64,000 bases of DNA from an uncultured Actinomycetes bacterium (GTDB lineage Bacteria > Actinomycetota > Thermoleophilia > Gaiellales > JAICJC01). The stretch lies in contig CAVPTL010000014.1 of NCBI GenBank assembly GCA_963708725.1, positions 74,497 through 138,496 of the forward strand, read 5' to 3'. Shown here one piece after another: positions 454 to 39,613 of this stretch (its first letter is position 1; each line of letters starts with the position of its first letter). A program made the position numbers and the translations under genes. The notes below the pieces were generated by a model. It was given only the letters and a program-made list of their open reading frames with translations, was not told where the DNA came from and did no database searches.

Positions 454-1742
454 GCCAGCCCGACGGTTGGCGACGACTCCATCCCCTGTCCCCCATCGTT
501 CGTGGAGGCCGGGGCACGATCGGCTTCATCGTCCTGCTTCTGCCGGCGATTCTGCGAGGCGGCGTCAGCCTTGGAGAGTTCATCCCCCTGGCCGCGGTGG
601 CCGTGTTCGTCGTGGTCGGATACATCTCGTGGATCGTGACCCGCTGGACGGTGGACGGCGACGATCTGCGGATCGAGACGGGCCTTTTGCGCCGCCGGTC
701 ATTGCGGTTCCCGCTGTCACAGGTACAGGCGATCGATATCGCCCGGCCGGGCCTTGCCCGGCTCCTCGGCGTGGCCGAGTTGCGTCTGCGGATGGGCGGA
801 TCGACCGGTGGGGCGGCTCGCCTTTCCTACGTTTCGGCCGGCGAGGTACAGGCGCTGCACGACCAGCTGATGACGCTCGCCCACGGCGACGCGCACGACC
901 CTGCCGCCCCGGCCCCCAAGCCGGCGGAGGCCACCGTCCTGACCACGGTTCCCACCGGTCGGCTGGTCGCCTCGATCCTCATCAGCGACGTCGGGTTCTA
1001 CGCCGAGGCGGTGTTCGTCGCGCTGGTGATCACCGCAGTCCTGGCTCCGGACATCGCCTCGGCGGTGATCAGCGGCGGCGGCCTGGTGTGGCTGATCGGC
1101 GTGGTCGCCGTCACCTGGCGGCGGTTCAATCAGGAGTACCGGCTGACCGTCTCCCAGGCCCATGACGGGCTGCGCCTCGGAGGCGGTCTGATCGCACTGA
1201 CGTCAGAGACGATCCGACCGGGCCGGGTGCAGGCGGTACGGATGGTCGAGCCGCTCCTGTGGCGGCCGTTCGGGTGGTGTCGGCTCCAGGTCGATCTGGC
1301 GGGACGCCAGCGCTCCGAGGGCGAGGGGCAGGCCCAACGACGCCAGCTGCGCACCGTGCTCCCGGTGGGTGACCGCGAACTCGTGGAGCTGCTGCTCGAC
1401 CGGATCCTCCCCGATCGCCCCCAGGAGCAATCCCCACCCCCCTCCCGCGCCCGATTCAAGAGCCCGTTGCGATACCGCATGCTCGGATGGGGCGGCACCG
1501 ACACCTGCGTGGTGACGACGTCGGGCCGGCTGCGGCGCACTACCAGCTGGGTGCCGCTCGAGAAGGTGCAGAGCCTGCGGCGCGTGCAAGGGCCGGTGCA
1601 GCGGCGGATGCGATTGGCGAGTGTCCATCTCGATACCGCCGGACGATCCGTGCACGCGACGCTTCGCGACCGAGACGTGGCCGAGGCCGACGACGCCCTC
1701 GCGCGGTTCGCCGATCTCGCCCGCGCACAGCGCCGCGCGTGA
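450..1742 (+). CDS. Bacterial PH-domain membrane protein (YdbT-like, repeated bPH_2 domains)
   Basis: N-terminal 'WRRLHPLSP'; repeated motifs 'GLLRRRSLRFPLSQVQAIDI' and 'VPLEKVQSLRRVQGPVQR'; paired with a YdbS-like gene. Confidence 0.85.
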   Translation: MSQPDGWRRLHPLSPIVRGGRGTIGFIVLLLPAILRGGVSLGEFIPLAAVAVFVVVGYISWIVTRWTVDGDDLRIETGLLRRRSLRFPLSQVQAIDIARPGLARLLGVAELRLRMGGSTGGAARLSYVSAGEVQALHDQLMTLAHGDAHDPAAPAPKPAEATVLTTVPTGRLVASILISDVGFYAEAVFVALVITAVLAPDIASAVISGGGLVWLIGVVAVTWRRFNQEYRLTVSQAHDGLRLGGGLIALTSETIRPGRVQAVRMVEPLLWRPFGWCRLQVDLAGRQRSEGEGQAQRRQLRTVLPVGDRELVELLLDRILPDRPQEQSPPPSRARFKSPLRYRMLGWGGTDTCVVTTSGRLRRTTSWVPLEKVQSLRRVQGPVQRRMRLASVHLDTAGRSVHATLRDRDVAEADDALARFADLARAQRRA

Positions 1743-1768
1743 ATAACGGTGCCAGGCACCGTTATTCA
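1740..1768. repeat. Dispersed palindrome copy 1: TGAATAACGGTGCC-A-GGCACCGTTATTCA
   Basis: Perfect 14-bp inverted arms; its first TGA is the stop codon of the 450-1742 gene. Confidence 0.95.
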
Positions 1769-1838
1769 TCGGCACGCCCGACGACGTCTCGAACGAGGCG
1801 TTCCCGGTATCGAGCGCCGTGGGGGTAGGATGGTCGCG

Positions 1839-2663
1839 ATGTCGAAGAAGCGACCCACTCGCATCCACCGCCGCCTGTACGAGGCCGAGCTGGAGCGACT
1901 GCAGATCGAGCTTGCCCGGATGCAGACGTGGGTACGCGATGAGGGCCAACGGGTTGTGGTGTTGTTCGAGGGGCGCGATGCCGCCGGCAAGGGCGGCACG
2001 ATCAAGCGCATCACCGAACCGCTGAACACACGGTTTGCGCGGGTCGCCGCGCTCGCTGCGCCGACAGAGCGGGAGGCCTCGGAGTGGTACTTCCAGCGGT
2101 ACGTCGCTCACCTGCCGGCGGCCGGTGAGATCGTCCTGTTCGATCGCAGCTGGTATAACCGCGCCGGCGTCGAGCACGTGCTCGGCTTCTGTACCGACGA
2201 GCAGTACCGCTTGTTCATGCGCCAGGTGCCCCAGTTTGAGCGAATGCTGATCGACGACGGCATCCTGTTTACGAAGTACTGGTTCTCGGTCTCCGACGAG
2301 GAGCAGAGGCGGCGGTTCCAGGATCGCATCGACGATCCGACCAAGCGTTGGAAGCTCTCGCCGATGGATCTCAAGTCACGGTCGCACTACGTCGACTACT
2401 CGCGGGCCAAGGATGAGATGTTCGAGCAGACCGACCTGCCCGGCACCGAGTGGTTCGTGGTCGAAGCCGACGACAAGCGCCGCGCGCGCCTCAACTGCAT
2501 CAACCACTTCTTGAGCCGGGTCCCGTGGGAAGACCGGACTCCGCCGCCGCCGCCCAAGCTCCCACGGCGCCAGGCCGACGGCGACTATGTGCGGCCGCCC
2601 AAGGACTCACAGAACTACGTGCCCGACCACGCCGCCGCCCTCGAACGCGAGAGCGACAAGTAA
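1839..2663 (+). CDS. ppk2: Polyphosphate kinase 2
   Basis: Walker A 'FEGRDAAGKGG', 'FDRSWYNRAGVE', 'WKLSPMD'; start placed at ATG 1839, 7 nt after TAGGAT. Confidence 0.95.
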   Translation: MSKKRPTRIHRRLYEAELERLQIELARMQTWVRDEGQRVVVLFEGRDAAGKGGTIKRITEPLNTRFARVAALAAPTEREASEWYFQRYVAHLPAAGEIVLFDRSWYNRAGVEHVLGFCTDEQYRLFMRQVPQFERMLIDDGILFTKYWFSVSDEEQRRRFQDRIDDPTKRWKLSPMDLKSRSHYVDYSRAKDEMFEQTDLPGTEWFVVEADDKRRARLNCINHFLSRVPWEDRTPPPPPKLPRRQADGDYVRPPKDSQNYVPDHAAALERESDK

Positions 2664-2678
2664 CAGCGCGGGGTCTGC

Positions 2679-3182
2679 TCAGTCGGGCTCGATGGCACCC
2701 GAGACCGTGCCGATCACCTCGCGGTAGTCGCTGTTATTGACGTTCACCACGTCGAAGTCGGTGTAGGACACATGCACCGGAATGGCTGACTGCCCCTTGG
2801 GACACTGCTCCGCGCGCGTAAACGGCGCGGTGACGAGGTCAAGGTAATAAAAGCCGCGGACGACGCCGTGCGAGTTCGCGGTATAGCCTCGCGCGTCCGC
2901 CGAGATCGCGATCGCGGATTTACTAAAGTGTTTTCGCCTGGGGAGAAACGTGTCGTCGGTGTAACAGCGATAGCTCTCAACCGCCGAAGTCGCGGTACCC
3001 GAATAGGCGTAGTTCTGCCCCGGCTTGAGGCCGCCCTCGGTGAAGTTGATCATCAACTCCTCGCCCGCGGTCTGCGCTGTGACCGTGGTGAAGTGCGGCG
3101 TCGGGGAAGCCAGCGCCTGCGCTGGTAACACCGCCGCGAGCGCAAGCGCGCCCATCGCCGCCAGGTACCGGTACGTGCCCAC
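2679..3182 (-). CDS. Secreted hypothetical protein
   Basis: Signal peptide ending 'AQALA'; SD AGGAGG upstream; two Cys; beta-rich composition. Confidence 0.7.
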   Translation of the reverse strand: MGTYRYLAAMGALALAAVLPAQALASPTPHFTTVTAQTAGEELMINFTEGGLKPGQNYAYSGTATSAVESYRCYTDDTFLPRRKHFSKSAIAISADARGYTANSHGVVRGFYYLDLVTAPFTRAEQCPKGQSAIPVHVSYTDFDVVNVNNSDYREVIGTVSGAIEPD

Positions 3183-3281
3183 GTGACCCCTCCTGCTCGA
3201 TTAAATCGAACATATCAGAGTTGTGCGAAATGTCACTCGCGTGAGGTCAGGTTTCTCCAAACAGACCCAACTCGAGGGGGG

Positions 3282-3310
3282 TGAATAACGGTGCCTGGCA
3301 CCGTTATTCA
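3282..3310. repeat. Dispersed palindrome copy 2: TGAATAACGGTGCC-T-GGCACCGTTATTCA
   Basis: Reverse complement of copy 1; terminal TCA (3308-3310) is the LysR stop on the minus strand. Confidence 0.95.
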
Positions 3311-4228
3311 CTGCGCGAGGGCGGCGATTTCAGCACGAGTCGCGGCGACCACGTCGGCGAGCCCGTCGGGGCGGCGGTCACGGTGGCTTGCGATTGCGAC
3401 GTGGCGAGGCTCGAGCGGCGGGTCGATGGTCACGCCCCGTACCCGCGGATCGCGAGTGTCCACGCTCATCCGGGGAAGGATCGCGACGCCGATCTGGGCG
3501 GCCACCAAGGCGTGGATCGTGAGGTTGTCGTCGCTGCGCGCCGCCACCGTCATCCTCACGCCGCGAGGGAGACGCTGACGGCCATGGTGGACGGGTCGCA
3601 CCTCGCGGTAGTCGATCAGCTGGTGACCGGTGAGCCCGGCGACGTCGACCGACGCCACCGAGCCCAGCGGGCCGTCGGATGCGACCAGCAGAACCAGCGG
3701 ATCATCCAGCAGGTCAACGGTCGCAAACGGACCTGAGCCGATCGGAAGCGCAACGAACGTGGCGTCGATCTCTCCCCGCGCCACCAGTTCGAGCAGGAGC
3801 CCGTCATCGGCGCGTTCGACGACCTCGATGGCGACATCGGGCCGCCTGGTCGAGAGCCGTCCGAGCACACCCGGAAGTAGCCGCGCCGCCACACTCTGGT
3901 AAATCCCGAGGCGAAGCACCGGTCGTTGCAATCGGATCCCCTCGAGGTCGGCGCGGGCCGCGGCAAACCGGGCTGCGATCTCGTCGGCGTGATCCAAGAG
4001 CCGTTGCCCCGCGGGAGTGATCGAGATCGCGCGCCGCCCGCCGGGGCGAATCACCAGCGGCTGAGCGACGAGTCGCTCCAGGCTTGCAATCTGCTCGCTC
4101 ACGGTCGAGAGGCTGTATCCGAGCCGTTCAGCGCCCCCGCGAAACGACCCGGCCGTGGCGACTGCGTGGAGGGCAACCAGATGGCGCAAGGAGATGCGTT
4201 GCCAAGATTGATCGATATCCTCGATCAT
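3308..4228 (-). CDS. LysR family transcriptional regulator
   Basis: HTH 'LVALHAVATAGSFRGGAERLGYSLSTVSEQIASLE', 'ITPAGQRL', substrate-binding domain; divergent from a dioxygenase. Confidence 0.92.
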   Translation of the reverse strand: MIEDIDQSWQRISLRHLVALHAVATAGSFRGGAERLGYSLSTVSEQIASLERLVAQPLVIRPGGRRAISITPAGQRLLDHADEIAARFAAARADLEGIRLQRPVLRLGIYQSVAARLLPGVLGRLSTRRPDVAIEVVERADDGLLLELVARGEIDATFVALPIGSGPFATVDLLDDPLVLLVASDGPLGSVASVDVAGLTGHQLIDYREVRPVHHGRQRLPRGVRMTVAARSDDNLTIHALVAAQIGVAILPRMSVDTRDPRVRGVTIDPPLEPRHVAIASHRDRRPDGLADVVAATRAEIAALAQ

Positions 4229-4300
4229 TCTGGAGAGTATATCCGGCTTTTCTCTCTCTTCCTAGTGTGTCATGCTGCCTCCATCAATCAAGGAGGAGCC

Positions 4301-5098
4301 GTGGGAACCCGCATGCTTGACGCGATCGACATTGAGCGCTATCCGATCCACGATCTCGACGGTCCCGGGGGACGCGCACTGGTGGAGCGTTGCCAGGCAG
4401 AGCTCGCCGAGCTGGGCGCCTGTGACCTCCCCGGATTCCTCGAGCGAGGCGCCGTCGATCAGATCGTGAGTGAGATTCCGAGCTGGGATGCGACGCCGTT
4501 TCGCACCGAGACGACACACAACATCGAGTTCTCGGGCCGGGAGCACGAGCTCGCCGACGACGACCCGCTCCGAATCCAGGTGCGCTCTGCCAAACAGCTG
4601 ATCGCCTACGACCAGATCCCCACCTCGTCACAGCTTCGCGACGTGTATGAGTCAGACGCACTGACCGCGTTCGTCGGTGCCGCCCTCGGGGTGAGTCCGA
4701 TCTATCGCCAGGCGGACGAGATCGGAGCCCTGACGGTGATGACCTACGGTCGCGGTGACGAGCTCGGGTGGCACTTCGACAACGCCGACTTCGTGGTGAC
4801 GCTGATGCTGCAGGCCTCTGAAGCCGGCGGGTCGTTCGAGTACGTGCCGATGCTCCGCACGCCCGACGACGACAACTCCGAGGGCGTGGCCGCGCTGCTT
4901 GGCGGCGATCGCAGCGGTGTGCGCACGATGAGCCCCGAACCTGGCACCCTGGCGCTGTTCCGCGGGCACCACAGCCCCCATCGCGTCACTCCGGTCGAAG
5001 GCGACAGACACCGGATCAACTCCGTGCTGGCCTACTCGGACAGGCCGGACTCGCGGGTCTCGCCCAGCGCGCTTCGGATCTTCTTCGGGCGCGAGTAG
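4301..5098 (+). CDS. 2-oxoglutarate/Fe(II)-dependent dioxygenase (BesD/HalD-like family, HxD type)
   Basis: 'LGWHFD' ... 'SPHRVTPV' ... 'R' triad and 2OG-binding pattern; SD AGGAGG at 4291 before GTG 4301. Confidence 0.8.
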   Translation: MGTRMLDAIDIERYPIHDLDGPGGRALVERCQAELAELGACDLPGFLERGAVDQIVSEIPSWDATPFRTETTHNIEFSGREHELADDDPLRIQVRSAKQLIAYDQIPTSSQLRDVYESDALTAFVGAALGVSPIYRQADEIGALTVMTYGRGDELGWHFDNADFVVTLMLQASEAGGSFEYVPMLRTPDDDNSEGVAALLGGDRSGVRTMSPEPGTLALFRGHHSPHRVTPVEGDRHRINSVLAYSDRPDSRVSPSALRIFFGRE

Positions 5099-5184
5099 TG
5101 CCGGCAATGTAACCCCGCCGACAAATCCCCAATCCGGCGGCCCACTTCGGGCATACTCCAAGAACACGGCCAAGGGGGATGTGG

Positions 5185-5340
5185 ATGAACATCGGAAACG
5201 ATATTCGGAGGATCCGGGTCGAGCCGCTCACGCTTCCGATCACGATCGACCAGCCCGCCGATCACCGAGTCACGGATCCGCGGGCCGACGAGCAGTGCGA
5301 TCCGAATCCGGCGCGGAGCGGTGAGCCTCGCTCCGCCTGA
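5185..5340 (+). CDS. Small hypothetical protein, 51 aa, MNIGNDIRRIRVEPLTLPITIDQPADHRVTDPRADEQCDPNPARSGEPRSA (not in the ORF track)
   Basis: Translated by hand; AAGGGGG SD-like sequence at 5172-5178 and CATACT -10-like box at about 5152; overlaps the next ORF by 20 nt. Confidence 0.6.
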   Translation: MNIGNDIRRIRVEPLTLPITIDQPADHRVTDPRADEQCDPNPARSGEPRSA

Positions 5341-5899
5341 CTATGTAGAGCCGTTCAGCGGCTGGCGAATCTGGACGGTCGTCATCCGCGATGGGCGCGC
5401 GCGGCTGCAGAGTCCCACGAGCTTCGACAACTGGACGCCGGAGGTGCCGTTCTCCGCGGAGTGCACCAGGACATCTCGGGAACGGCTTCGACCCTGGCGG
5501 GTACACCACCAACGCCACGCTCCGCCGGCCGATCACTGTACGTGCGGCGTGTACGCGATGTTCGAGCCGGGGCACCTGGCCCACTTCTTTCGCACCACCG
5601 TCATGGGGCCACGCGTCCACTACCACGTGTTCGGGCGCGTGTTCCTGTGGGGCGACGTGGTCGAAGCCGATCGAGGCTGGCGCGCGTCTGAGGCCTATCC
5701 GGCCGAGCTGTGGCTGCCTGAGATGGATTACCACATCGATCGCAGCGTCGGCCTGACGAAGGCCGCGGCCGGCCTCTATGACTACGGCGTGCCGCTGCAT
5801 GTTCGCGGCACCACTGCGCCGCGCGATCTCCTCCGCGAGCTGAACGGTGGCGAGTTACCGGCCGTCGAGACGCGCCGGTTCACGCGCCAGGCGGGTTGA
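5321..5899 (+). CDS. Hypothetical protein with C...H-x-P-x4-CxCGVYA and G-x-V-x-LWG-x-V...GWRA motifs
   Basis: Coherent globular sequence with aromatic/Gly motifs and four candidate Zn ligands. Confidence 0.75.
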   Translation: MSLAPPDYVEPFSGWRIWTVVIRDGRARLQSPTSFDNWTPEVPFSAECTRTSRERLRPWRVHHQRHAPPADHCTCGVYAMFEPGHLAHFFRTTVMGPRVHYHVFGRVFLWGDVVEADRGWRASEAYPAELWLPEMDYHIDRSVGLTKAAAGLYDYGVPLHVRGTTAPRDLLRELNGGELPAVETRRFTRQAG

Positions 5900-5961
5900 A
5901 CTTCGCCCGAGCCGAGGGCATTAGACTCACGCCAGGCCATCGACACGACGGAGAACCGCAA

Positions 5962-6345
5962 ATGACGGACACTGCATCACCCTCTCAGCAGATTGACGCG
6001 AGGATCGAGGAGCTCGACGACTGGCGGGGCGCGATGCTCGGCCGGCTGCGGGCGCTCGTCAAGGAGGCCGATCCAGAGATCGTCGAAGAGTGGAAGTGGC
6101 GAGGCGTGCCGGTGTGGGAACACGACGGCATCATCTGTACCGGCGAGACCTACAAGAGCGTCGTCAAAATGACCTTCGCCAAGGGAGCGGCGCTCGACGA
6201 CCCCGAGGGCCTGTTCAACTCCAGCCTCGAGGGGAACACGCGGCGGGCCATCGACTTCCATGAGGACGAGAAGATCAACGAGAAGGCCCTGAAGGCGTTG
6301 ATTCGCGAGGCGATCGCCCTCAACGAGTCGAAAGCCAAGAAGTAG
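5962..6345 (+). CDS. DUF1801 (YdhG-like) domain protein
   Basis: 'DWRGAMLGRLRALVKEADPEIVEEWKWRGVPVW...FAKGAAL.DP.GLFNSSLEGNTRRAID'; SD GGAG. Confidence 0.88.
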   Translation: MTDTASPSQQIDARIEELDDWRGAMLGRLRALVKEADPEIVEEWKWRGVPVWEHDGIICTGETYKSVVKMTFAKGAALDDPEGLFNSSLEGNTRRAIDFHEDEKINEKALKALIREAIALNESKAKK

Positions 6346-6346
6346 C

Positions 6347-6919
6347 TCAGACCGCGGTGTCAGCCGCCACCAGACACTCCCGGACAAGTCGCCGGAAGCC
6401 AGGGTAGAAGACGGCACCGATCAGCGGCGTCCTGGGCCAGTAGTGGGCCTCGCCGGTGGTCCCGTTCACGATCACCGGAAACGACACCTCACGCCCGAAC
6501 TCATGCGGCCCACGCTGTCTCTGCACCGCTTTTGCGAGTAACTCATCCACAGCCGGCAGCACCAGCACCGGCACGAACATGAACCGTGGTCGTCCGTGGC
6601 TAAATGATCCGCTCGGGCGCCACTCGCGCAAGCACCCGACCGCGCTGGCATACGCGCTGGGAAGGTCTCTGGTCGTCATGGTGGTGCGCGATTGGACGGT
6701 GACGAGGTTCGGAGTGGCGGGCGCGAGGGCGGCATCTCGCCAGGCGACCAGGTCGAAGCGTCCGCTCGCGCTCTCGACTGAAGGATCGATGGTGAAACCG
6801 ACCGCCGCCAGCCGGTCGGCGATCCCGTCCAGAACCCTGTTTGGCCCGGCCCAACTCGCCAGCGCGTGATGCGATTCCATCGTGGTTCCAGGTTCGGCGG
6901 CCGGGGCGGACACGGGCAT
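6347..6919 (-). CDS. Hypothetical protein (start uncertain)
   Basis: 190-aa ORF filling the gap between convergent and divergent neighbours; alpha/beta pattern. Confidence 0.6.
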   Translation of the reverse strand: MPVSAPAAEPGTTMESHHALASWAGPNRVLDGIADRLAAVGFTIDPSVESASGRFDLVAWRDAALAPATPNLVTVQSRTTMTTRDLPSAYASAVGCLREWRPSGSFSHGRPRFMFVPVLVLPAVDELLAKAVQRQRGPHEFGREVSFPVIVNGTTGEAHYWPRTPLIGAVFYPGFRRLVRECLVAADTAV

Positions 6920-7050
6920 CCCCCGGACGGGGTAGGCCCTCGTCGTGCACCGATCGGCCGAGCTTCACTCACAGAGACCGGGTGGCGAAAGGACGTCCGG
7001 CATCGCCCTATCATCACGTCGGTGTCCTCGTCGCTGGCAGCATTGGTGGG

Positions 7051-8868
7051 ATGGTGAACGCCGTTGAGCGCCTCGCCGACGGTGTGTTGGTCGGCGACGG
7101 CGGACTTGGCTCGCTGTTGTCGTTACAGCTCCCCGAGCTGAGGTTTCCCGAGGAGGCCAACCTGGTCGCGCCCGAGGCGGTGCTTGCCGCCCACGTCGAG
7201 TTCATCCGCGCCGGCGCCGACGTGATCCAGACCAACACCTACGGTGCAAACGCGGTCAAGCTGGGTGCCCACCGGTTCGAGCACCAGGTCGCCGAAATCA
7301 ACGAGGCGGGAGCCAAGATCGCGCGCGACGCCCGCGAGGTGGCCGGCCGCGACGTGCTGATCGCGGGCTCGATCGGCCCGCTGGGAACATCAATCGAATC
7401 CGTCGGCAGCGACACCTCGAGCGGTGCCGGCCAGTACGGTCGCCAGGCCGCGATACTCGAGGGCCGGGGAGTCGACCTGATCGTGCTGGAGACGTTCACC
7501 TCCCTGGACGAACTGACCGCGGCGGTGAACTCGGTGCAGGCGCAATGCCACCTCCCGCTGATCGCCCAGATCACCGTGCAGGACGACGGTGAGACGGTCA
7601 CCGGCGCGCGCGGTGGTGAGGTCGCCGTGGCCCTGGCCGGCCTCGGCGTCGCCGCCGCCGGAATCAACTGCAGCCTCGGCCCACAGTCCGCGTTGGCGGG
7701 CCTTCGCGAGATGCGCAGCGCAACTGGATTGCCGCTCACGATCCAGCCGAACATCGGCATGCCGATGTACCGCGACGGACGCGTGCTCTATCCCGACGCC
7801 TCCGAGGCCTACGCGGCCGAGTTCGCCGCCCAGGCGATCGCGCTGGATGCGCGGCTGGTGGGCGGCTGCTGCGGCACCCAGCCCCATCACATCGCGGCCA
7901 TCCGGCGGGCGGTCGACGAACATCGACCCGCGCACTTCCACTTTGCCCGACGGGAGCCGACAGCTGCTCCCACTGCCGCTGATCCGAGCGACAGCCGGCT
8001 CGCCGAGCGGCTCGCGGCCGGCGAATGGGTCGTGTCGGTCGAGCTCGACCCGCCCAAGGGAGGCAGCCTCACCCGCCTACTGGGAATCGCAGCCGAGATC
8101 CAGGCGGCCGCCGGGATCGAGTTCTTTGACATCAACGACAACCCGATGGCCCGCGCCAGAATGAGTTCGCTGATGACCTCGGCATTGGTGCAGCAGCACC
8201 TCGACGTCGAGACGATTCCCCACCTGACACCGCGCGACGCCTCAGCGCGAGGTCTGGAATCGCAGCTTTTGGGCGCGCACGCCAGCGGCATCCGAAACGT
8301 GCTGGCTGTCACCGGCGACTATCCCCCACCCGGCGATCACGGCGGTTCGGACGCCGCCTTCGAGGTCGATGCCATCGGCCTGGTCGAGATCATCGCCGCG
8401 CTCAACCGGGGTACCGACCGGGCCGGAAAGACGCTCGATGCACCCACCGCATTCTTGCCCGGAGTGGCCGTCAATCCGACCGCGGATGACGTCGGCTTCG
8501 AGCTGGAGCGGTTCGCGCGCAAGGTGGAGGCGGGCGCACGCTTTGCGATGACCCAGGTGCTGTTCGACCTCACCCCGCTCAACGAGATGCTCGAGCGGCT
8601 CGGCGGTAGGTCGCCGATCCCGATCCTGATCGGCCTCTGGCCAATCACGAGTCACGCACTCGCGCTGCGGCTGCACAACGAGGTGCCAGGGATCACCGTG
8701 CCCGAGACGATCCTCAACCGTTTTGCCCGAAATGACGCGCACGCTGCTCGCGAGGGTGTGGCCGTCGCCCGCGATCTGCTGATGCAAGCCCGCGAGCTCA
8801 CCGCCGGCGCCTATCTGGTCGCCCCGTTCGGACAGCCGGAGCGGGTGCTCGACGTGCTGGCTTCGTAG
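7051..8868 (+). CDS. yitJ: Bifunctional homocysteine S-methyltransferase / methylenetetrahydrofolate reductase (YitJ-like)
   Basis: 'GDGGLG', 'AGADVIQTNTYGAN', Zn ligands 'GINCS' and 'GGCCG'; C-terminal MTHFR domain 'SVELDPPKG...LAVTGD...KVEAGARFAMTQ'. Confidence 0.92.
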   Translation: MVNAVERLADGVLVGDGGLGSLLSLQLPELRFPEEANLVAPEAVLAAHVEFIRAGADVIQTNTYGANAVKLGAHRFEHQVAEINEAGAKIARDAREVAGRDVLIAGSIGPLGTSIESVGSDTSSGAGQYGRQAAILEGRGVDLIVLETFTSLDELTAAVNSVQAQCHLPLIAQITVQDDGETVTGARGGEVAVALAGLGVAAAGINCSLGPQSALAGLREMRSATGLPLTIQPNIGMPMYRDGRVLYPDASEAYAAEFAAQAIALDARLVGGCCGTQPHHIAAIRRAVDEHRPAHFHFARREPTAAPTAADPSDSRLAERLAAGEWVVSVELDPPKGGSLTRLLGIAAEIQAAAGIEFFDINDNPMARARMSSLMTSALVQQHLDVETIPHLTPRDASARGLESQLLGAHASGIRNVLAVTGDYPPPGDHGGSDAAFEVDAIGLVEIIAALNRGTDRAGKTLDAPTAFLPGVAVNPTADDVGFELERFARKVEAGARFAMTQVLFDLTPLNEMLERLGGRSPIPILIGLWPITSHALALRLHNEVPGITVPETILNRFARNDAHAAREGVAVARDLLMQARELTAGAYLVAPFGQPERVLDVLAS

Positions 8869-8992
8869 CGACTCAGTCCATCGACCACTGGAGGCGCGAT
8901 CGGCGATCACGAGATGGGCTCGCTGTGCGGCTAAGACGACGCGATTAGCGCGCTTGATCCCACACCGAGTTAGGTGGTCTGGCGGCGAGAAC

Positions 8993-9430
8993 CTACTCGG
9001 CGACCATCTCGCCAGAACCACCCATTTCGGCAGGAAAGTCCTTGAACTTGGGCAGGCCATCGTCGATCGCCAACACGGACGACTCGCAGTTGACGTGCAC
9101 GCCGGGGGTGAAGGGAAACGAGGGAATCGTCGCCGCGTAGACATCGACCAAGCCCCACTTCGGATGATTCGTCATGAGATGGCCACCGCAGTCAGTGCAC
9201 CATTGGCGGTAGCTGCGATCGTTCTGGTTGTACTCGCCGATCTTGTCTTCTCCCTGGGTCACCGTGACCGCGTCGGTTGGCCAGAGTGTGAACGCGTTGA
9301 CCGGGCCCGCCGACCAACTCCGGCACGAGGCGCAATGGCAGTAGCCGGCTCCCGCCGCATCGCCCGTGACCACGATCTTCACCGCACCGCAATAGCACTG
9401 CCCTTCAAAGCTCTTCTCACTCTGGCTCAC
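8993..9430 (-). CDS. GFA family (CENP-V/Gfa) zinc protein
   Basis: 'GQCYCGAV', 'CHCASCR', 'WCTDCG'; SD GGGAG before GTG 9430. Confidence 0.92.
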   Translation of the reverse strand: MSQSEKSFEGQCYCGAVKIVVTGDAAGAGYCHCASCRSWSAGPVNAFTLWPTDAVTVTQGEDKIGEYNQNDRSYRQWCTDCGGHLMTNHPKWGLVDVYAATIPSFPFTPGVHVNCESSVLAIDDGLPKFKDFPAEMGGSGEMVAE

Positions 9431-9573
9431 TACCAAACTCCCTCTGCCGAGTCGCGTGGATAGATCTTCCAACCAGACGATCGTAACGGCTGAGATCTTC
9501 CCGTGGGCACGATGTCAGCGGCGGGCGTGCTGCTCGGGGGCCAGCGTTCTGCGAACCCTACGGCTACCTGAGA

Positions 9574-9598
9574 TGGAGGCGGCGGGAATCGACCCGCG
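9574..9598 (-). repeat. Displaced copy of the tmRNA 3' end (att-like direct repeat)
   Basis: tggaggcggcgggaatcga-cccgcg matches 10116-10141 except for a 1-nt deletion in the T-loop. Confidence 0.9.
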
Positions 9599-9650
9599 GA
9601 TCGTTCTGGCCGTACGGCGCCGTCGTCAGAACGAATCTCGCGTGCAATAC

Positions 9651-9986
9651 CTAGCTCGCGACGCTTTTCTTCTGGCCAGCGATACCGATCGGGTACGAAT
9701 TCTCGTCAAACCGTGCGACCAGCTCGAGCTTCCCGCCCATGGCCTCGACATAGGCTCGCAGAGTGGAGAGATAGACGTCGTTTTCACGCTCGACCCGACT
9801 GATGTTCACCGGCGTCTGGTGCAACCGCTCGGCGACTTGAGCTTGAGTCAGTCCCTGAGCCTTACGGATGTCCTGAAGCGCGTATCCATGCTTGATTGCC
9901 TGGACACCCGCAACAACGCGCTCCTCCATGCCGGGACGTTCCGCAAGCTTACGATCCCGGACTTCCTTCCACGATGTTGTCTTCAT
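9651..9986 (-). CDS. XRE-family HTH protein, HigA-like antitoxin
   Basis: 'LQDIRKAQGLTQAQVAERL...NISRVERENDVYLSTLRAYVEAMGGKLELVARF'; SD GGGAG before ATG 9986. Confidence 0.85.
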   Translation of the reverse strand: MKTTSWKEVRDRKLAERPGMEERVVAGVQAIKHGYALQDIRKAQGLTQAQVAERLHQTPVNISRVERENDVYLSTLRAYVEAMGGKLELVARFDENSYPIGIAGQKKSVAS

Positions 9987-10115
9987 GATTCGACTCCCTG
10001 GCTGGTTGGGTGGCGGGTTCGCGGTCATCATTCCCGCGCCCAACCCGATCGGAACCGGTCAAAGATCCGAGTCCGATCGATCTCGGCTCTCGATCCCTCA
10101 CCCACAGCCAAACAG

Positions 10116-10470
10116 TGGAGGCGGCGGGAATCGAACCCGCGTCCATGACCGCACGAAGAAAGCGTCTACAAGCGTAGTCCGGGTTTGAAATTCGCCCTTG
10201 AGCTGCCCCCGAACAGGCCACCCTACGGACTAGCCCGTCTTTGAAGTCCCGGTCGGCGGCGCAGGCGCTCCGCCTTCCAGCAAGCCCGTTAGCTGACGCC
10301 GGCAATCCCTCCCACGGGCCGGAGGGGCCGACGCGCTACCTAGTTAATTAGGCAGCGAGTGCGAGATCATTTTCCGCACTTGCGGTTTTCCAGGGATTTT
10401 ACGAGGCCACCTGGAACCTCGGCTTGCAACCTTCCCCGAGAAACGACCATGTCGAAACCAGTACGCCCCC
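10116..10470 (-). ncRNA. ssrA: tmRNA
   Basis: 5' GGGGGCGTACTGGTTTCGAC, 3' GGACGCGGGTTCGATTCCCGCCGCCTCCA; acceptor stem with G3:U; tag frame 10377-10348 reads AENDLALAA*; CCA not fully encoded. Confidence 0.97.
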
Positions 10471-10486
10471 AGGAACTCGAACCCAC

Positions 10487-10492
10487 ATTGTA
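10487..10492 (-). promoter_or_regulatory. -10 box (TACAAT) of ssrA
   Basis: Near-consensus hexamer 16 nt upstream of the mature 5' end. Confidence 0.65.
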
Positions 10493-10502
10493 CCCGTCGG
10501 GG

Positions 10503-10967
10503 CTACTCGCCCTCGTAGTAGTCGACGTTGTTCGAGCGTTTCACCATCACGTCGTCCGCGCGATTCCCCGTCCAGATACCGATCTTGTCACTATCGGGAT
10601 AGACGGTCGCCGCCGGATGGGTGATGGACGAGTACATGAGCACCCGCACGGTGTCGCCGGTGTCGTTCTGCACTCTGTGCGCGCCTTCCGGGCCGCTCGG
10701 AAAGAACACGAGATCCCACTTGTCGAGCTGGTCGGATCCGTCCGGATGGCGCAGCGTCGGCCGCCCCTCGAGCACCAGCAGCCACTCCTCCTCGCCATAC
10801 TCATAGTGGTACGGGCACAGAGCCTCACCGGCCGGAATCTCATACACCGACGAGCCGGTTGACTTGGCGTCCAGCGAGGGGCCGATGCGAAACATCCCAG
10901 CCTTGAATCCATCCGGGTCTTCGCCGTCGTAGTGGAAGGTGGGATTGGCGATGTTGACGCGACGCAT
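10503..10967 (-). CDS. Cupin domain protein
   Basis: 'PYHYEYGEEEWLLVLEG' and 'FPSGPEGAHRVQN' cupin motifs. Confidence 0.9.
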   Translation of the reverse strand: MRRVNIANPTFHYDGEDPDGFKAGMFRIGPSLDAKSTGSSVYEIPAGEALCPYHYEYGEEEWLLVLEGRPTLRHPDGSDQLDKWDLVFFPSGPEGAHRVQNDTGDTVRVLMYSSITHPAATVYPDSDKIGIWTGNRADDVMVKRSNNVDYYEGE

Positions 10968-11020
10968 GTGTGGGTCATGATACCCGGGAGGAGGTTGCGA
11001 CACCGGCGACCCGCCTGCCA

Positions 11021-11773
11021 CTACTTCGTCGGCGCCTGAGCAGTGGCGTCCTGCGCCCGGGCCACCAGCCTCGCCGCCGGTTCCGCGTCGGGAAGCACAT
11101 CGCTACGCCCCTCCTGAAACTCGATCGCCGCCTCGAGCACCGAGTCATAGCCACGACCGAGCGCCCAGCGACCGCCGTCGACCTTCGAACAGATCACGCC
11201 CTCCTCGGCGAAGCGCCACACGCGGGCGGCGTTGAGGGTCTGGTAGGCGGTCGAGCCGTGCTCGAGGCCCCAATCGAGCTCGTGTCGAAACTCGGCCAAA
11301 AGCCATTCTCGGGGGATCGCGCCCACCACCTCCGTGGCCGGTGGGCCGACGAGTGCGACGCCGGCGGTGCGCACCACGGCGAGATGCAGGATCACGTCCG
11401 TCGACGGCCCGTGGCTCTCACCGAACACCGCCACGTCGCCGTCCGGCCCCGTGCTGAGGTTCAGCTCGAACGGTGACGGGTGACGCGGTCGTCGAGCCAC
11501 ATCGAGGGTGATCACGTCCAACTCGAGCCCGCACGCCGGATTGGGGATCCGTGCGTGGCTGACCGCCGCGGCCAGTTCACCCAACCGCTCGCGGCCTAGC
11601 GGCCGGCGCACCACCGCGAGTGCGTCGACATCGCTTCGGTCGACCCCAAAGCCGCCGAGTACCGCCGAGCCGTGCAGATACACCGCTTCGAGATCGCGAC
11701 CGATCACCGCAACGATCGCAGCTGCGATGTGGGCGGTGTAGTCGGCTATTGCGGGTGGCACGCTCACAGGCAC
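11021..11773 (-). CDS. Nucleotidyltransferase with AadA-like C-terminal domain (DUF4111)
   Basis: '[11 protein letters not shown]...SDVD' NTase motif; 'LNAARVW...SKVDGGRWA'; start approximate. Confidence 0.8.
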
Positions 11774-11790
11774 CCCGCAGCCTACCGAGG

Positions 11791-11817
11791 TAAATCCGCC
11801 CGTCCCGCGTCCGATCA
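11791..11817 (+). promoter_or_regulatory. Putative sigma-28 (FliA/WhiG) promoter
   Basis: TAAA-N15-TCCGATCA versus consensus TAAA-N15-GCCGATAA, upstream of an MCP gene. Confidence 0.6.
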
Positions 11818-11872
11818 TCCGATGCGTACGGCGACTCGCGCCGTGTCGCTATCGAGCACGGTGGAGGAACTC

Positions 11873-13582
11873 GTGAAACCAGGTGGATGGTCGCTCAAGC
11901 TCAAGCTCGCGGCGGGATTCGGTCTTGTGGTTGCGGTGTTTTTGGTGGCGATGGCGGCGGTGCTGTCGGCATCCCAACGCTCGGACCACGCGTGGGCCCA
12001 GACGCTCGGATGGTCGGCCGCCCAGAAGGGCGTCGCCGAGCAGATCCGCAGCACCCAGGCCCAGATGTTCGAGCAAGACGCCCTGGTGGCGACCTGGAAC
12101 CCGGTTCACATGCAGCGTTGGGAGGCGGCAGTCGCGCTTGGTGATCATGGCGCGGCGGCGGTCTCGAAGGTGCACGATCACGTGATCGCGACCGTCTCGG
12201 CGAACGCGAGCGTCGCCGACCACCACCACGACGACACCGTCCATCACCTGCTCTTCCCCGCCTTCAAGCGGGGCGACCACGCCGCCGCACTCGCCGCGCT
12301 GCTGAAAGCCAACCGCTACGTGCAGGTGCCCTACCGCGCGCTGCTTACGGTCCGCACCCGCATCGACCAACTCCGCGATCGCGACGCCGCCACGGCTCAC
12401 CGCTATGCCCGAAGAGCCCAGGTCATCGGCCTGCTCGCAGTGCTGCTGGGCGCAGTCGTGGCTGCGGTCGTCTCGATCCTGATCATCCGCAGTGTCCGGC
12501 GACCGATCGCTGCGCTGGTCGCGATCAGTGAGGCCGCCGCGGCCGGGGATCTGACCGTGCGCGCGGACGCTCGCAACGACGAACTCGGGCGACTCGGCCG
12601 GAGCTTCAACTCGATGATCGAGAACCTCGAATCGCTTGTCGACCAGATCGGTGAAGCGTCGACATCGGTACGTGGCGCCGCCGAGGAGATGTCGCAGACC
12701 AGCGCCGGCGCGGGCCGCGCGATCGACGAGATCGCGGTGTCGATGGGCGACATCGCAGCCGGCGCCGAGCGCCAGGCGCGACTCGCAGACGCCGCCCGAA
12801 CGGCGGCCGACTCGGTCGCCGACGGCATCGAGCTGAGCGCCACGAGCGCCAACGAAGCCAGCGCGGTCGCGGGCAATGCTCGGGCAGCAGCGGACGCCGG
12901 TGTCGAATCGGCGACGGCTGCGAGCGAGGCCATGGAGGTGCTGCGCGAGTCCGCCGACTCGGTCACCGCCGCGATTCGCCGGCTGGCGTCGAAGTCGGAG
13001 GAGATCGGTGGGATCGTCGAGGCCATCACCGGAATCGCGGGCCAGACCAACCTGCTGGCGCTGAACGCCGCCATCGAAGCCGCCAGGGCCGGCGAGCAGG
13101 GGCGGGGATTCGCGGTCGTCGCCGAAGAGGTACGGAAACTCGCCGAGGAATCTGAGCAGGCCGCTTCACGGATCAGTTCACTGATCGGCGAGATCCAGAT
13201 CGAGACCCAGCGCGCGGTGGAGGTCGTCGATGAATCCGCACGCCGCTCCGAGTCGGGCGCCGCAACCGTCGAGGCCGCCAAGGAGGCGTTCCTCGCGATC
13301 GGCGGTTCGGTGACCCAGGTCACGAGCCAGGTGTCCGACGTGCTGGTTGCGATCGAGGCCGTCCGCGACGGAGCACGGCGAATGACCGACAGCCTGACCG
13401 AGGTAACCGGAGTGTCGGAAGAATCCGCAACAGCGGTTCAGCAGGTGTCGGCATCCACCCAGCAGACGACGGCGTCCACCGCCGAGATCGTCACGTCAGC
13501 CGGCCGGCTGACTTCGACCGCGGGCGAGCTGGAACGGCTCGTGGCCAGGTTTCGGGTGGTTCCCGTGCCGCAGTCCGACTGA
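11873..13582 (+). CDS. Methyl-accepting chemotaxis protein (TM-sensor-TM-HAMP-MA)
   Basis: '[38 protein letters not shown]'; HAMP 'GDLTVRA...[13 protein letters not shown]'; SD GGAGG before GTG 11873. Confidence 0.95.
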
Positions 13583-13589
13583 GTTCCGC

Positions 13590-13617
13590 GAACTTCTGAC
13601 ACGTGCGGCCGGTCTGA
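13590..13617 (+). promoter_or_regulatory. Putative ECF sigma promoter GAACTT-N16-GTCTGA
   Basis: Matches the RpoE-type consensus and lies 5 nt before ATG 13623. Confidence 0.6.
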
Positions 13618-13622
13618 TGGAC

Positions 13623-14162: not shown

Positions 14163-14187
14163 CCCACCCGGTCACTACACTCACCGG

Positions 14188-14562
14188 ATGCGTCTCGAGG
14201 TGCGATTCTCTGCGGTCCCGGTCGAGGGGTTGCGGGCGTTTTTGGAGCCATTGGGCTACCGGTTCGACTGGGGTCCGGAGCTGGAAGGGATCGGGTTTCA
14301 CTGGCTCAAGCAGCCGCTATCGGGCACGGGCGTGCGCGCGACCTACTTCCCCGACGGTACCGAGGGACTGCTGCTGCTCGAGACCGACGCGCAGGCGTCG
14401 GTCACCGACGCCGCCATGCAGGACGTGACCGCTCGGCTACTGGCGGAGCGATTCGAGAGCGTGTCGGTGTGGTGTGCCACCACCGATCGGCCGGAATACG
14501 CCGGCGGCCAGAGCTCCGAGCCGCCCGCTCCCGGCGTCGACCCACCCGCCTGGTACTCGTGA
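14188..14562 (+). CDS. Hypothetical protein
   Basis: 124-aa ORF; TACACT 6 nt upstream of the ATG; stop lies inside palindrome copy 3. Confidence 0.65.
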   Translation: MRLEVRFSAVPVEGLRAFLEPLGYRFDWGPELEGIGFHWLKQPLSGTGVRATYFPDGTEGLLLLETDAQASVTDAAMQDVTARLLAERFESVSVWCATTDRPEYAGGQSSEPPAPGVDPPAWYS

Positions 14563-14588
14563 ATAACGGTGCCTGGCACCGTTATTCA
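14560..14588. repeat. Dispersed palindrome copy 3: TGAATAACGGTGCC-T-GGCACCGTTATTCA
   Basis: Identical to copy 2; supplies the stops of both convergent genes. Confidence 0.95.
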
Positions 14589-15031
14589 CCCGCGAGCTGT
14601 TGCCAGGTCTTACCGCTGCGGACGCTGGCCGGCTGTTCGGCCACGATGTCTGAGCCTGGGCGGGCGAACTCGTCGCGCGCTTTGACGAGAATCCAGCTGC
14701 GCTCTCCCGTGCGGGTCAACCCGAACCGTCCCGAGAGCTTCTTGCCGGTGAGCTCAAACGACAGGTGATCGTGCTCCTCGCGGTCGAACTCGACGGTGCC
14801 CTCGTCCCAGATGATCACTGCGCCGGTGCCGCGCGACGAACCGGCGTGCACGCCCTCGAACTCGCCGGCCTCAAGGGAATGATCGTCGACCGGCACCGCA
14901 AGCCGGCGCTCGGCCGGATCCATCGACGGTCCCCTGGGCACTGCCCACGAGCGCAGCAGGTCGCCGACCTGGAGCCGCACGTCGTAGTGCAGTGCGGTGG
15001 CGTCATGGAGCTGCACGACAAAACGCGGCAT
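14582..15031 (-). CDS. Stand-alone LigD 3'-phosphoesterase (PE) domain protein
   Basis: 'FVVQLHDATALHYDVRL...SWAVPRGPS.DP..RRLAV.VDDH', 'IWDEG', 'G.KLSGRF.L'. Confidence 0.9.
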   Translation of the reverse strand: MPRFVVQLHDATALHYDVRLQVGDLLRSWAVPRGPSMDPAERRLAVPVDDHSLEAGEFEGVHAGSSRGTGAVIIWDEGTVEFDREEHDHLSFELTGKKLSGRFGLTRTGERSWILVKARDEFARPGSDIVAEQPASVRSGKTWQQLAGE

Positions 15032-15054
15032 CGTCTCGGTACTCTATGACCCCG

Positions 15055-16198: not shown

Positions 16199-16208
16199 GA
16201 GTACCAGT

Positions 16209-17384: not shown

Positions 17385-17411
17385 TCATACCTCAAGATGT
17401 CGGTAAGGACA

Positions 17412-17462
17412 GGGGCCGGATGCGTTTGCCGCCCGTTTTTGGGCAGGCTGACGCAGGGCCCC
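17412..17462 (-). promoter_or_regulatory. Long interrupted hairpin in the MFS leader (possible attenuator)
   Basis: Nested pairings GGGGCC/GGCCCC, GCGT/ACGC, GCC/GGC, GCCC/GGGC right after the uORF stop. Confidence 0.5.
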
Positions 17463-38351: not shown

Positions 38352-38389
38352 CGCCCGATTCTGGCAGAGCCGGTAGCGTCTCGTGTCCG

Positions 38390-39589
38390 ATGGGTGAACT
38401 GTCCCTCTGGCAGCGGCGCGGCGAGCGCACCGCCTACCCCACCGCCAAGGCCGATATCAGGGCTGATGTCGTTGTGGTGGGCGCCGGGGTCACCGGCTGC
38501 GCGTGTGCGCGCAGGTTGGCCCGCGCGGGTCTGTCGGTGGCCGTCATCGAGGGCCGTGAGGTGGCGGCCGGCGCGAGCGGCCGAAACGGTGCGTTTGCCT
38601 CGACCGGCACCGGCCTCGGCTTCGATCGGCTGGTCGAACGGGTGGGACTCGAGACCGCCGTCGCCGTGCAGGAGCTGACCGAGTCGGCGATGGATCAGAT
38701 GCTGGCTCTGGCACGGGCGGCCGGCGTCGCCGCCGCGGTTCGCCGCACGGGCAGCGTGTGGCTCGCGGCAGCCGACGAGGTCGAGCTGGTCGAGAGTGCG
38801 ATCGGCGCCCTCCACGGAGCGGGCTTCCGCTGCCGGATCGACCGCACGGCGGTGCCCGAGCGGATGCGGCGGTGGTATCCGCTTGCGGCCGTGGTTGATG
38901 CCGACGGGGAGCTGCTTCCCGCCGAGTGGGTGCGCGCGCTTGCGGCGGCGGCTGCTGGAGCCGGCGCGGTGATCTACGAGCAGACGCCTGTGACCGCGCT
39001 CGCACCCGACGGGGACGGCTGGGCGGTCGGTCTTGCGGGCGGCCACACTGCCCACTGCAGCGCGGTGGCGATCGCCTGCGATGGTTTGATCCCAGCGCTC
39101 GTGCCCGAACTCGAGCGGATCGTCTACCCGGTTCGGGGCCAGGTGCTGGCGACCGAGCCGCTCGCAGACACGGTGATCACGCGGCCGACGCACTCCGACC
39201 ATGGGTACCTCTACTACCGCCCCACACCCGATTCGCGCGTCGCCCTCGGCGGCGGCCGACTCGCCGATGTCGATGCTGAGTACACGACGGTGGAACAGAC
39301 CTCGGCGCCGGTGCAGGCCGCGCTCGAGCAGTTCCTGAGCGAGCGGCTGGGGATCGACACTGGCCGGATCACCCATCGGTGGGCCGGGATCATGGGCTTC
39401 TCGGCCGACATGCTGCCGGTCGTCGGAGAGATCCCCGCGAAGCCTGGACTCTGGGTGTGCGGAGGCTACAGCGGTGTCGGCAACGTGCCGGGCTTCGCGC
39501 TCGGTCAGCTGCTGGCCGAGCGCATCGCCGGCGCCCCCGACACGGACGTCACCCGTGCCCTAAGTGTCACAAGATTCCCCCGTGAATAA
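38390..39589 (+). CDS. FAD-dependent oxidoreductase (DadA/PuuB family)
   Basis: 'VVVGAGVTG', 'GASGRNG', 'WAGIMG...LPVVG', 'GYSGVG'. Confidence 0.9.
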   Translation: MGELSLWQRRGERTAYPTAKADIRADVVVVGAGVTGCACARRLARAGLSVAVIEGREVAAGASGRNGAFASTGTGLGFDRLVERVGLETAVAVQELTESAMDQMLALARAAGVAAAVRRTGSVWLAAADEVELVESAIGALHGAGFRCRIDRTAVPERMRRWYPLAAVVDADGELLPAEWVRALAAAAAGAGAVIYEQTPVTALAPDGDGWAVGLAGGHTAHCSAVAIACDGLIPALVPELERIVYPVRGQVLATEPLADTVITRPTHSDHGYLYYRPTPDSRVALGGGRLADVDAEYTTVEQTSAPVQAALEQFLSERLGIDTGRITHRWAGIMGFSADMLPVVGEIPAKPGLWVCGGYSGVGNVPGFALGQLLAERIAGAPDTDVTRALSVTRFPRE

Positions 39590-39613
39590 ATGGTGCCTGG
39601 CACCATTTATTCA
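39583..39613. repeat. Dispersed palindrome copy 4 (variant): TGAATAAATGGTGCC-T-GGCACCATTTATTCA
   Basis: Perfect 15-bp arms; C->AT in the left arm mirrored by G->AT in the right arm; contains the TAA stop of the oxidoreductase. Confidence 0.93.

Follow-up and report, generated by a model that had tools for sequence, protein, structure and literature searches.

Introduction

Repetitive extragenic palindromic (REP) sequences have been described together with REP-associated tyrosine transposases (RAYTs) in several bacteria, and a few of these systems stand close to the one considered here. In Escherichia coli, the RAYT named TnpA-REP requires a 5' GTAG and a mismatch in the stem of its substrate, and a perfect palindrome abolished both binding and cleavage in the work reported in PMC3333891. 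REPs tagged with GTAG are also reported to give TAG stops (Di Nocera et al. 2013, PMC3733652). For the Pseudomonas repeats called REPINs, the REPORTH preprint (10.1101/2024.10.14.618302) gives 13 of 20 fully conserved spaces as holding mixed types, which are termed "overwritten". Another branch of the Y1 proteins, namely subclass 2.1 or TIRYT, carries a C-terminal HTH_23, HTH_28 or Bac_DnaA_C domain and is described by Quentin et al. 2018 (PMC6006769) as having terminal inverted repeats with no REP-like sequences nearby. As regards gene expression, a study as cited in PMC12306157 reports that a REP lying no more than 15 nt from a stop codon makes ribosomes stall and reduces translation. The interest of such systems lies in how RAYTs spread REPs and in the cellular role that REPs play. 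The present study concerns a short perfect palindrome that was first seen in a stretch of 64,000 nucleotides (hereafter the window) on contig CAVPTL010000014.1 of an uncultured Actinomycetes bacterium of the Gaiellales (assembly GCA_963708725.1), where it supplies stop codons to adjacent genes.

We hold with considerable confidence that this palindrome represents a REP family of an uncultured soil actinobacterium, whose cognate RAYTs spread or renew copies that end neighbouring genes. Like the REPs and bacterial interspersed mosaic elements (BIMEs) of E. coli with their TnpA-REP (a RAYT, YafM; PDB 4ER8), as described in Ton-Hoang 2012 (PMC3333891) and Nunvar 2010 (PMC2817692), the family consists of short palindromes in hundreds of copies which lie mostly after genes. 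The family is unusually simple, and one genome unites a replication-strand bias of a single base, conserved sites with exchanged sequence, and the routine use of repeat-borne stops by ordinary genes. Among the genes that use such a stop are those of LigD, a LysR regulator and an oxidoreductase, and in a sister species also atpC.

Results

A genome-wide family of perfect palindromes

An earlier note, made from the letters of the window alone, had described four copies of the palindrome together with the genes that they end. All four were re-located exactly, each with a G before it. When the ends of the open reading frames (ORFs) in the window were checked individually, each of the five stop codons ascribed to the copies proved to be a real ORF end, with Pfam, the source of the gene names used here, naming four of the five genes, and the distance of 3 nt between the atpC stop and the copy at 39583-39613 was borne out as well (Table 1). 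The 29-bp form of the element, to which three of the window copies belong, reads TGAATAACGGTGCC-W-GGCACCGTTATTCA. Of the 13-bp core, 0.21 matches would be expected in the window by chance; there are 4, a number that 0 of 100 shuffles reached.

The source genome of the window (G000, the window lying on its contig C14; other G numbers denote relatives) is assembled into 20 contigs, with a size of 3.65 Mb and 66.8% G+C. A Hamming scan of the whole genome with both forms of the element, at no more than 4 mismatches and with two weaker matches (6 and 7 mismatches) excluded, gives 208 copies, 180 of them exact, so that the palindrome is by no means confined to the few copies which the earlier note had before it. 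The 31-bp form accounts for 122 copies (118 exact) and the 29-bp form for 86 (62 exact). Each copy is built of AT-rich outer arms, TGAATAA...TTATTCA, a spacer of 1-2 nt and a GC core, GGTGCC-W-GGCACC; the palindrome is perfect except for the single centre base, and usually has one extra G/C pair outside the arms. A G stands at -1 in 162 of the 208 copies and a C at +1 in 147, with a weaker, family-specific pair at ±2. The hexamer GAATAA has only 227 occurrences on the plus strand of the whole genome, most of which therefore belong to the element, and the centre motif CCWGG is neither depleted nor enriched genome-wide (13,672 observed, about 15,117 expected from composition). The median spacing of copies is 12 kb, and 10 neighbouring pairs are less than 400 bp apart. 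The element also occurs in at least 99 stretches of other records, and among the matches listed are Gaiellales, Thermoleophilia and uncultured Actinomycetes bacterium.

Two details of the copies and their surroundings deserve a place here. At least 3 extra flank pairs were counted in 41 of the 208 copies, with about 4 expected, which prompted the idea that copies had been inserted into older hairpins; the idea was dropped, as the extra pairs are mostly the element's own less conserved outer pairs, G/C at ±1 and G/C or C/G at ±2. Furthermore, two units of about 200 bp, at G000:C8:848809-849022 and G000:C11:50096-50300, are each enclosed by two 31-bp copies with opposite centre bases and have similar interiors, and look like a composite mobile unit.

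That the family is an artefact of assembly or sequencing, for instance an adapter or a chimeric junction, is hardly credible. It is true that contigs of public runs break or diverge at copies, but this happens at any repeat. The copy nearest to any contig end lies 181 bp from it, so assembly junctions do not account for the copies, and the coincidence with contig ends by which the element might have been exposed as an artefact was not found. Moreover, several genomes that were assembled separately contain the element, in subtypes that differ by species, and copies lie inside conserved gene junctions where they serve as stops for genes with normal Pfam domains. At the level of strains, the contigs of four public runs, which are short, of low depth and broken at repeats, list no 29-bp omission at the three copies in window 1-20000.

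Stop codons supplied by the element

Genes were called by a codon-usage score trained on the genome's own long ORFs, which gave 3,224 genes covering 87.6% of the DNA. With respect to these genes, 91 of the 208 copies have a convergent context, 89 a co-directional and 26 a divergent one, and 2 have a called gene on one side only; 181 copies face at least one gene 3' end and 27 face none. Whichever strand is read, each arm offers a TGA and a TAA that between them close two frames out of three, and a copy landing at a gene end consequently terminates the gene. Copies are faced by 272 gene 3' ends, of which 98 have their stop within an arm (56 TGA, 42 TAA) and 1 reads through in the third frame; for at most one read-through in 99 at a chance of one-third the binomial p is 2e-16. 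In all, 88 copies (42%) give at least one stop and 10 give two, by which the element provides 42 of the 421 TAA stops and 56 of the 1,931 TGA stops of the genome. Proteins that use the TAA of the element end in ...E or ...GE, encoded by flank and arm. From loci of other genomes 80 copies were collected, and by a looser criterion 46 of them give a stop, with 31 TGA, 21 TAA and 2 read-throughs.

These figures matter for annotation, in that about 3% of genes take their stop and their final one or two residues from the repeat. Gene starts are affected in another way. The flanking G and the TG of the element form a GTG, which the longest-ORF rule reads as a start codon, giving ORFs that seemingly begin in the element; examples of this trap are G000:C14:77778 (window 3282) and C8:866699.

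The position of the stops can be understood from the packing of genes. The gap between convergent genes is 10 nt at the median, with overlap in 190 of the 581 convergent pairs, so an element settling between such genes must touch coding ends. Copies without a stop role are found at about 5 per nt over the first 18 nt (0 to 17) downstream of a stop. Given this density and the survival of insertions in two frames out of three, about 30 nt of coding end in which insertion is tolerated would be enough to yield the 98 in-element stops, for which a selective filter is therefore a sufficient explanation. We regard as quite improbable that the element is instead actively targeted to stop codons, for example through an enzyme target that resembles its TGA-containing end. 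The similar case of the GTAG-tagged REPs, which give TAG stops (PMC3733652), speaks for such homing; the short tolerated coding end just estimated, however, accounts for the in-element stops without it, and among the 27 copies that face no gene 3' end 26 lie between divergent genes. What is more, the prediction of a target site failed, the orientation bias of copies giving a TGA stop (38:18) being not stronger than that of copies giving a TAA stop (27:15).

RAYT genes and their palindrome subtypes

One gene of the genome stands above the Pfam cut-off for Y1_Tnp, at 36 bits with a cut-off of 23. It is located outside the window, on contig C11, and is an intact ORF of 230 aa with the HUH and Tyr motifs and a C-terminal helix-turn-helix (HTH). 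The gene lies between two 29-bp copies, whose centre bases A and T are opposite and which are thus inverted; a Y1/RAYT gene flanked by copies, absent from the window according to the earlier note, therefore does exist in this genome. Its own TAA and the TGA of the convergent neighbour are both within one of the flanking copies. The C-terminal HTH is matched in Pfam by Sigma70_r4 at 25 bits, with HTH_23 and HTH_28 slightly below their cut-offs. A second RAYT homologue, found by protein search at G000:C6:115152-115790 on the minus strand, is 51% identical; its frame is interrupted by two TGA, and it ends with RE* in a 31-bp copy.

Used as a single-sequence query, the C11 RAYT gave no match to PDB sequences. 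A profile of 12 RAYT homologues, in which H60, H62, Y119 and N123 (an Asn four residues after the catalytic Tyr) are invariant, matches E. coli TnpA-REP (4er8_A) at E 1.6e-5, the match extending across the HUH and Y motifs. RAYT homologues were found by protein search in 34 of the 41 related genomes.

The surroundings of 18 RAYT loci in G000 and its relatives were examined. A pair of odd-length perfect palindromes of the same build encloses the gene at 8 of them, one further locus has a palindrome on the sole available side, and the other 9 have none at the thresholds used. Regardless of the strand that carries the RAYT gene, 7 of the 8 flanking pairs have a left-hand copy centred on A and a right-hand copy centred on T. 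The subtype of the flanking palindrome goes with the RAYT. The spacer is C/G at the C11 RAYT of G000 and at that of G005 (75% identical), TT/AA at the RAYTs of G002 and G003-C18 (64% identical), and AA/TT at that of G003-C29 (59% identical), and the RAYTs of G004, G007, G019 and G020 have palindromes with other arms around a C-W-G centre. The present element is absent from G004, whose RAYT is flanked by a different palindrome. Three of the four palindromes at RAYTs of other genera of the order (L079 of G007, L080 of G019, L186 of G020 and L078 of G004) begin with TGA, namely TGAATAG..., GTGAAAAAAA... and TGAGAAT..., the fourth being GCAACAAAC.... Among the 41 relatives, the 31-bp type is essentially confined to the genus, where 5 of the 6 other members have it.

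Occupied, empty and exchanged sites

Orthologous sites were compared with the sister species G003, of which 390 kb was used and whose syntenic stretches are 75-90% identical to G000. From G003 to G000, 24 of 32 sites could be anchored on both sides, with 15 occupied, 7 empty and 2 unclear. From G000 to G003, 96 copies on three contigs were tested and 19 anchored, the other 77 being mostly outside the 390-kb part; of the anchored sites, 15 hold a copy, 2 correspond to a single variant copy (TGCATAA...), and one each is empty or unclear. Empty orthologous sites, which a mobile element should leave in relatives, are thus present in both directions.

In 17 shared pairs the identity is 53% in the flanks (60 columns on each side), 97.5% in the arms and 99.5% in the core. 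The centre base agrees in 13 of the 17 pairs, and the spacer subtype in only 2. Point mutation is unable to alter both arms alike at most sites, and a copying or overwriting process is therefore needed. The junction between the oxidoreductase gene and atpC gives a detailed example, as it is occupied in all four genomes that have it (G000, G003, G005 and G006): the copy is of the AT/AT form in G000 and of a TGCATAAAA form in G006, G003 has two copies, and G005 has two decayed copies. The oxidoreductase orthologues of G003 and G006 likewise end within the REP at this junction, and the atpC stop, which in G000 is the gene's own, is in G003 the arm of one REP copy. An arm variant with both arms changed alike, TGCATAA...TTATGCA, has lost the TGA and kept the TAA (G003:C1:38210-38302, G003:C29:3055-3087 and L189 in G006), and it is at the TAA of this variant that the G006 oxidoreductase ends.

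Proteins that end at an element stop were compared with those from the corresponding empty sites; where the automatic choice of the orthologous ORF scored low or negative, the alignment was judged by eye or the site omitted. The C-terminus is identical at 3 ends, differs by one residue at 4 (+1, +1, -1, -1) and by about +2 at 1. In two cases the element TGA stands exactly where the empty site has TAA or TAG. At the ORF 14188-14562 of the window, G003 has TAG at the same codon position, with the C-terminus unchanged. The LigD_N product is 4 residues shorter than its G003 orthologue, and the G006 and G004 orthologues exceed the PH-domain product (450-1742) by 4 to 7 residues. The expectation of altered C-termini at orthologous loci thus held for these two shortened proteins, but elsewhere there is mostly little or no change. 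Such small changes would be expected if copies inserted at the stop itself, if selection on C-termini were strong, or if the old stop was lost at a later time while the arm served as back-up.

The first of these three possibilities is the homing introduced above. That C-termini scarcely change between element-stop and empty sites, that in two cases an element TGA has replaced TAA or TAG at the exact position, and that related REP families of this RAYT clade also begin with TGA are points in its favour; the empty sites are about 20% diverged, however, so that exact insertion points are unreadable, and the estimate given for it is left as it was. The third possibility is a capture of stops, in which a copy lands a few bases downstream, and the original stop is later lost harmlessly because the arm has back-up stops in two frames. 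We think it possible for some genes, though doubtful as the general explanation. The sites are old, being common to species with about 75-90% identical syntenic DNA, many copies lie 0 to 20 nt past a stop, several proteins that end in the element exceed their orthologues by 1 to 2 residues, and the atpC stop is the gene's own in G000 and element-borne in G003. On the other hand, capture cannot yield the shortened C-termini of the LigD_N and bPH_2 genes, nor can it explain sites where the convergent genes overlap in the empty state (G003 C2 23196), and it is in any case a contributing route and not an alternative identity for the element.

The centre base and GC skew

The sole asymmetry of the element is its centre base, and this base is not distributed at random between the strands. 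On the plus strand, regions of positive local GC skew have 69 copies centred on A and 39 centred on T, and regions of negative skew have 26 with A and 74 with T (odds ratio 5.0, p 4e-8). The bias is seen between convergent genes (32:14 vs 15:30) and in both forms of the element, and it persists for half-windows from 10 to 200 kb and without contig C8. Within contig C8, the majority of A or T flips where the sign of the skew flips. The G-rich strand is T-rich overall (correlation -0.77), so an A there runs counter to mutational bias. By analogy with other single-strand transposition systems, the link between centre base and GC skew fits a mobilisation of single strands that is coupled to replication.

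Hairpin formation and the question of a host function

As RNA, the element is predicted to form a hairpin of 13-14 pairs, with -22 to -30 kcal/mol and z-scores of -4.3 to -6.3; it may also play some part at the RNA level. A simple consensus terminator scan did not call the copies, though the hairpin is strong and the arms are A/T-rich, and Rfam has no family at the copies, its sole match in the window being a tmRNA.

These properties bear on a different explanation, by which the uniformity of the copies is due to selection for a host function, whether in termination in both directions, in stabilising mRNA 3' ends or in binding a dimeric protein, and the RAYT is incidental. Several observations suit it. 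Convergent and co-directional contexts account for 91 and 89 of the 208 copies, the RNA hairpin has strong z-scores, the GC core with an A-rich and a T-rich arm beside it is laid out like an intrinsic terminator that works both ways, the element is conserved far above its flanks, and symmetric changes of the arms suit a homodimer site as well as a hairpin. Selection at 200 sites, however, cannot alone shift both arms in step between species, for which copying is needed; each subtype adjoins its own RAYT; and the replication-strand bias of one central base has no obvious reading for a terminator or a dimer site. Considering also the lack of any match at the copies in the terminator scan and in Rfam, we judge a host function unlikely as the origin of the family.

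Copies and genes in the window

The four window copies and the genes beside them are collected in Table 1.

Table 1. REP copies in the window and the genes at whose ends they lie (window positions)
Feature	Position	Strand	Remarks
REP copy, 29-bp form, centre A	1740..1768	.	left-arm TGA ends the bPH_2 gene
REP copy, 29-bp form, centre T	3282..3310	.	right arm (TCA) ends the LysR gene as a minus-strand TGA
REP copy, 29-bp form, centre T	14560..14588	.	stops given: TGA for ORF 14188-14562 (+), TAA for the LigD_N gene (-)
REP copy, 31-bp form, centre T	39583..39613	.	gives TAA to the DAO oxidoreductase gene; atpC stop 3 nt past the right end
Bacterial PH-domain (bPH_2, ydbT-like) gene	450..1742	+	stop TGA 1740-1742 within REP; Pfam
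LysR-family regulator gene	3308..4228	-	stop TGA read from 3310, within REP; Pfam
124-aa ORF, no Pfam family	14188..14562	+	stop TGA 14560-14562 within REP
LigD 3'-phosphoesterase-domain (LigD_N) gene	14582..15031	-	ends ...LAGE*; stop TAA read from 14584, within REP; Pfam
FAD-dependent (DAO) oxidoreductase gene	38390..39589	+	stop TAA 39587-39589 within REP; Pfam
atpC (ATP synthase epsilon)	39617..40021	-	own stop, 3 nt from REP in G000; Pfam

Three of the four copies (1740, 3282 and 14560) stand at borders of segments that have another order or content in relatives of the genus, as seen against G003:C5:178802-191276 and others. In the relatives, the gene corresponding to 14175-14558 is followed by that of 11787-13559 and then by the LigD region, and window 2656-5976 and 6337-10112 have no counterpart at that locus of the relatives. 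REP copies may thus mark borders of rearrangement or insertion. The window also holds a tmRNA gene at 10113-10470 on the minus strand (Rfam RF00023, 188.6 bits). Beside it, 1.2 kb of the window (8913-10117) is 98% identical to the end of contig C5 (G000:C5:17446-18655), and this stretch may be the border of an element integrated at ssrA or an assembly duplicate.

Discussion

The view of the earlier note, that a REP-like mobile palindrome sits at gene 3' ends, is supported by the number of copies, by the stops within them, by the flanked RAYT and by the empty orthologous sites. The mechanism which we propose for the family runs as follows. Cognate RAYTs, relatives of the HUH/Y1 single-strand DNA transposases with a C-terminal HTH, would spread the copies and keep them uniform, from genes that lie elsewhere in the genome, each beside its own palindrome subtype. 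The process would act on single-stranded DNA at the replication fork. As there is almost no room between convergent genes, a copy landing in or just after the last codons would end the gene at once; insertions in the third, open frame would be selected against, and the survivors would leave 42% of the copies as working stops.

A number of points weigh against this proposal. The C6 RAYT, with two in-frame TGA in this assembly, is the one that pairs with the 31-bp form, and yet no subfamily is more uniform than this form (118 of 122 copies identical). The C11 RAYT scores 67.7 for NCBIfam REP_Tyr_transpos (NF047646) and so does not reach its cut-off of 80. One relative, G001, has 40 copies but no RAYT that could be found by the present query, in an assembly which is only 54% complete. 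The 34 copies of G003 (in 390 kb) show no centre-base bias (8:8 vs 8:10), and the syntenic part of G000 is equally flat (12:10). Besides, the gene calls come from a custom codon-usage caller and not from an established annotator, mobility is read from differences between species, the fragmentary contigs of the public runs showing no copy present in one and absent from another of near-identical strains, and the uniformity of copies could reflect selection for host function instead of overwriting by RAYTs. Finally, the copies of G000 are without the 5' GTAG and without the stem mismatch, unlike the substrates of E. coli TnpA-REP as reported in PMC3333891.

A further idea goes beyond the proposal of RAYT-spread, gene-ending copies. 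Far from being passive debris, the copies could be long-lived, fixed modules, each a stop plus a hairpin, at the 3' ends of about 3% of genes, and the RAYT paralogue active at a given time would periodically rewrite them on the spot, with the spacer of 1-2 nt as a specificity code between RAYT and palindrome; we put this forward tentatively and would not yet favour it. If it were true, the family would be a minimal system, with a perfect hairpin of 29-31 nt and a strand mark of one base, for working out how RAYTs copy or overwrite REPs.

Comparison with known systems

The arrangement of the C11 locus resembles that of E. coli, where a Y1/HUH gene between two inverted copies (a REPtron) and a REP at or just after the RAYT stop have been described (PMC3333891, PMC2817692). 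The present family is unlike the E. coli one in having single copies with no BIME arrays, a RAYT with a C-terminal HTH and an actinobacterial host.

With the REPINs and their RAYTs (Bertels and Rainey, bioRxiv 10.1101/2021.07.10.451892; 10.1101/2024.10.14.618302) the family has in common RAYTs that are vertically inherited in single or few copies and near-identical repeat populations. In addition, the conserved intergenic spaces described in 10.1101/2024.10.14.618302 change their resident repeat type, to which the 2 of 17 identical spacers found here may be compared. The unit of REPINs, by contrast, is a doublet of two REPs of about 100 bp, and that of the present family a single perfect palindrome of 29-31 bp; inverted REP doublets within about 200 bp, by which REPINs are recognised, do not characterise it, with 10 pairs closer than 400 bp among 208 copies. 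The subtypes of the family are also unlike those of REPINs in that they differ only in the spacer of 1-2 nt, altered on both arms.

As to the transposase, the C-terminal HTH of the C11 RAYT is shared with subclass 2.1 or TIRYT (PMC6006769), a likeness of domain and not a placement in the tree of that paper, and its location between high-copy REPs sets it apart from that group as described there. The strand bias of the centre base is as would be predicted by the mechanism of the IS200/IS605 insertion sequences, whose single-strand transposition is coupled to the lagging-strand template according to PMC6006769 and PMC3333891; unlike in IS200/IS605, no transposase lies inside the dispersed copies. 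Similarly, the family shares with the ribosome-stalling REPs of PMC12306157 a stable hairpin at or right after the stop of the upstream gene, and it differs from them as there described in that the stop is within the 5' arm of the hairpin.

The closest likeness in gene ends is to the GTAG-tagged REPs of PMC3733652, as stop supply by REP ends is common to both; the stop-codon property is accordingly not new, being already in print in the account given there. Compared with the GTAG and CGTC superfamilies of that paper, the end of the present element is GTGA, GTAG and CGTC are absent from its consensus, and it is one perfect palindrome with TGA and TAA in both arms, for which the share of stop-giving copies (88 of 208) is quantified. 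Our searches of an open-access library listed no paper linking RAYT, REPIN or REP to Actinobacteria or Gaiellales. Set beside these systems, what differs here is the host phylum, the perfect stem, the GTGA end, the single copies, the HTH-bearing RAYT and the quantified share of gene ends.

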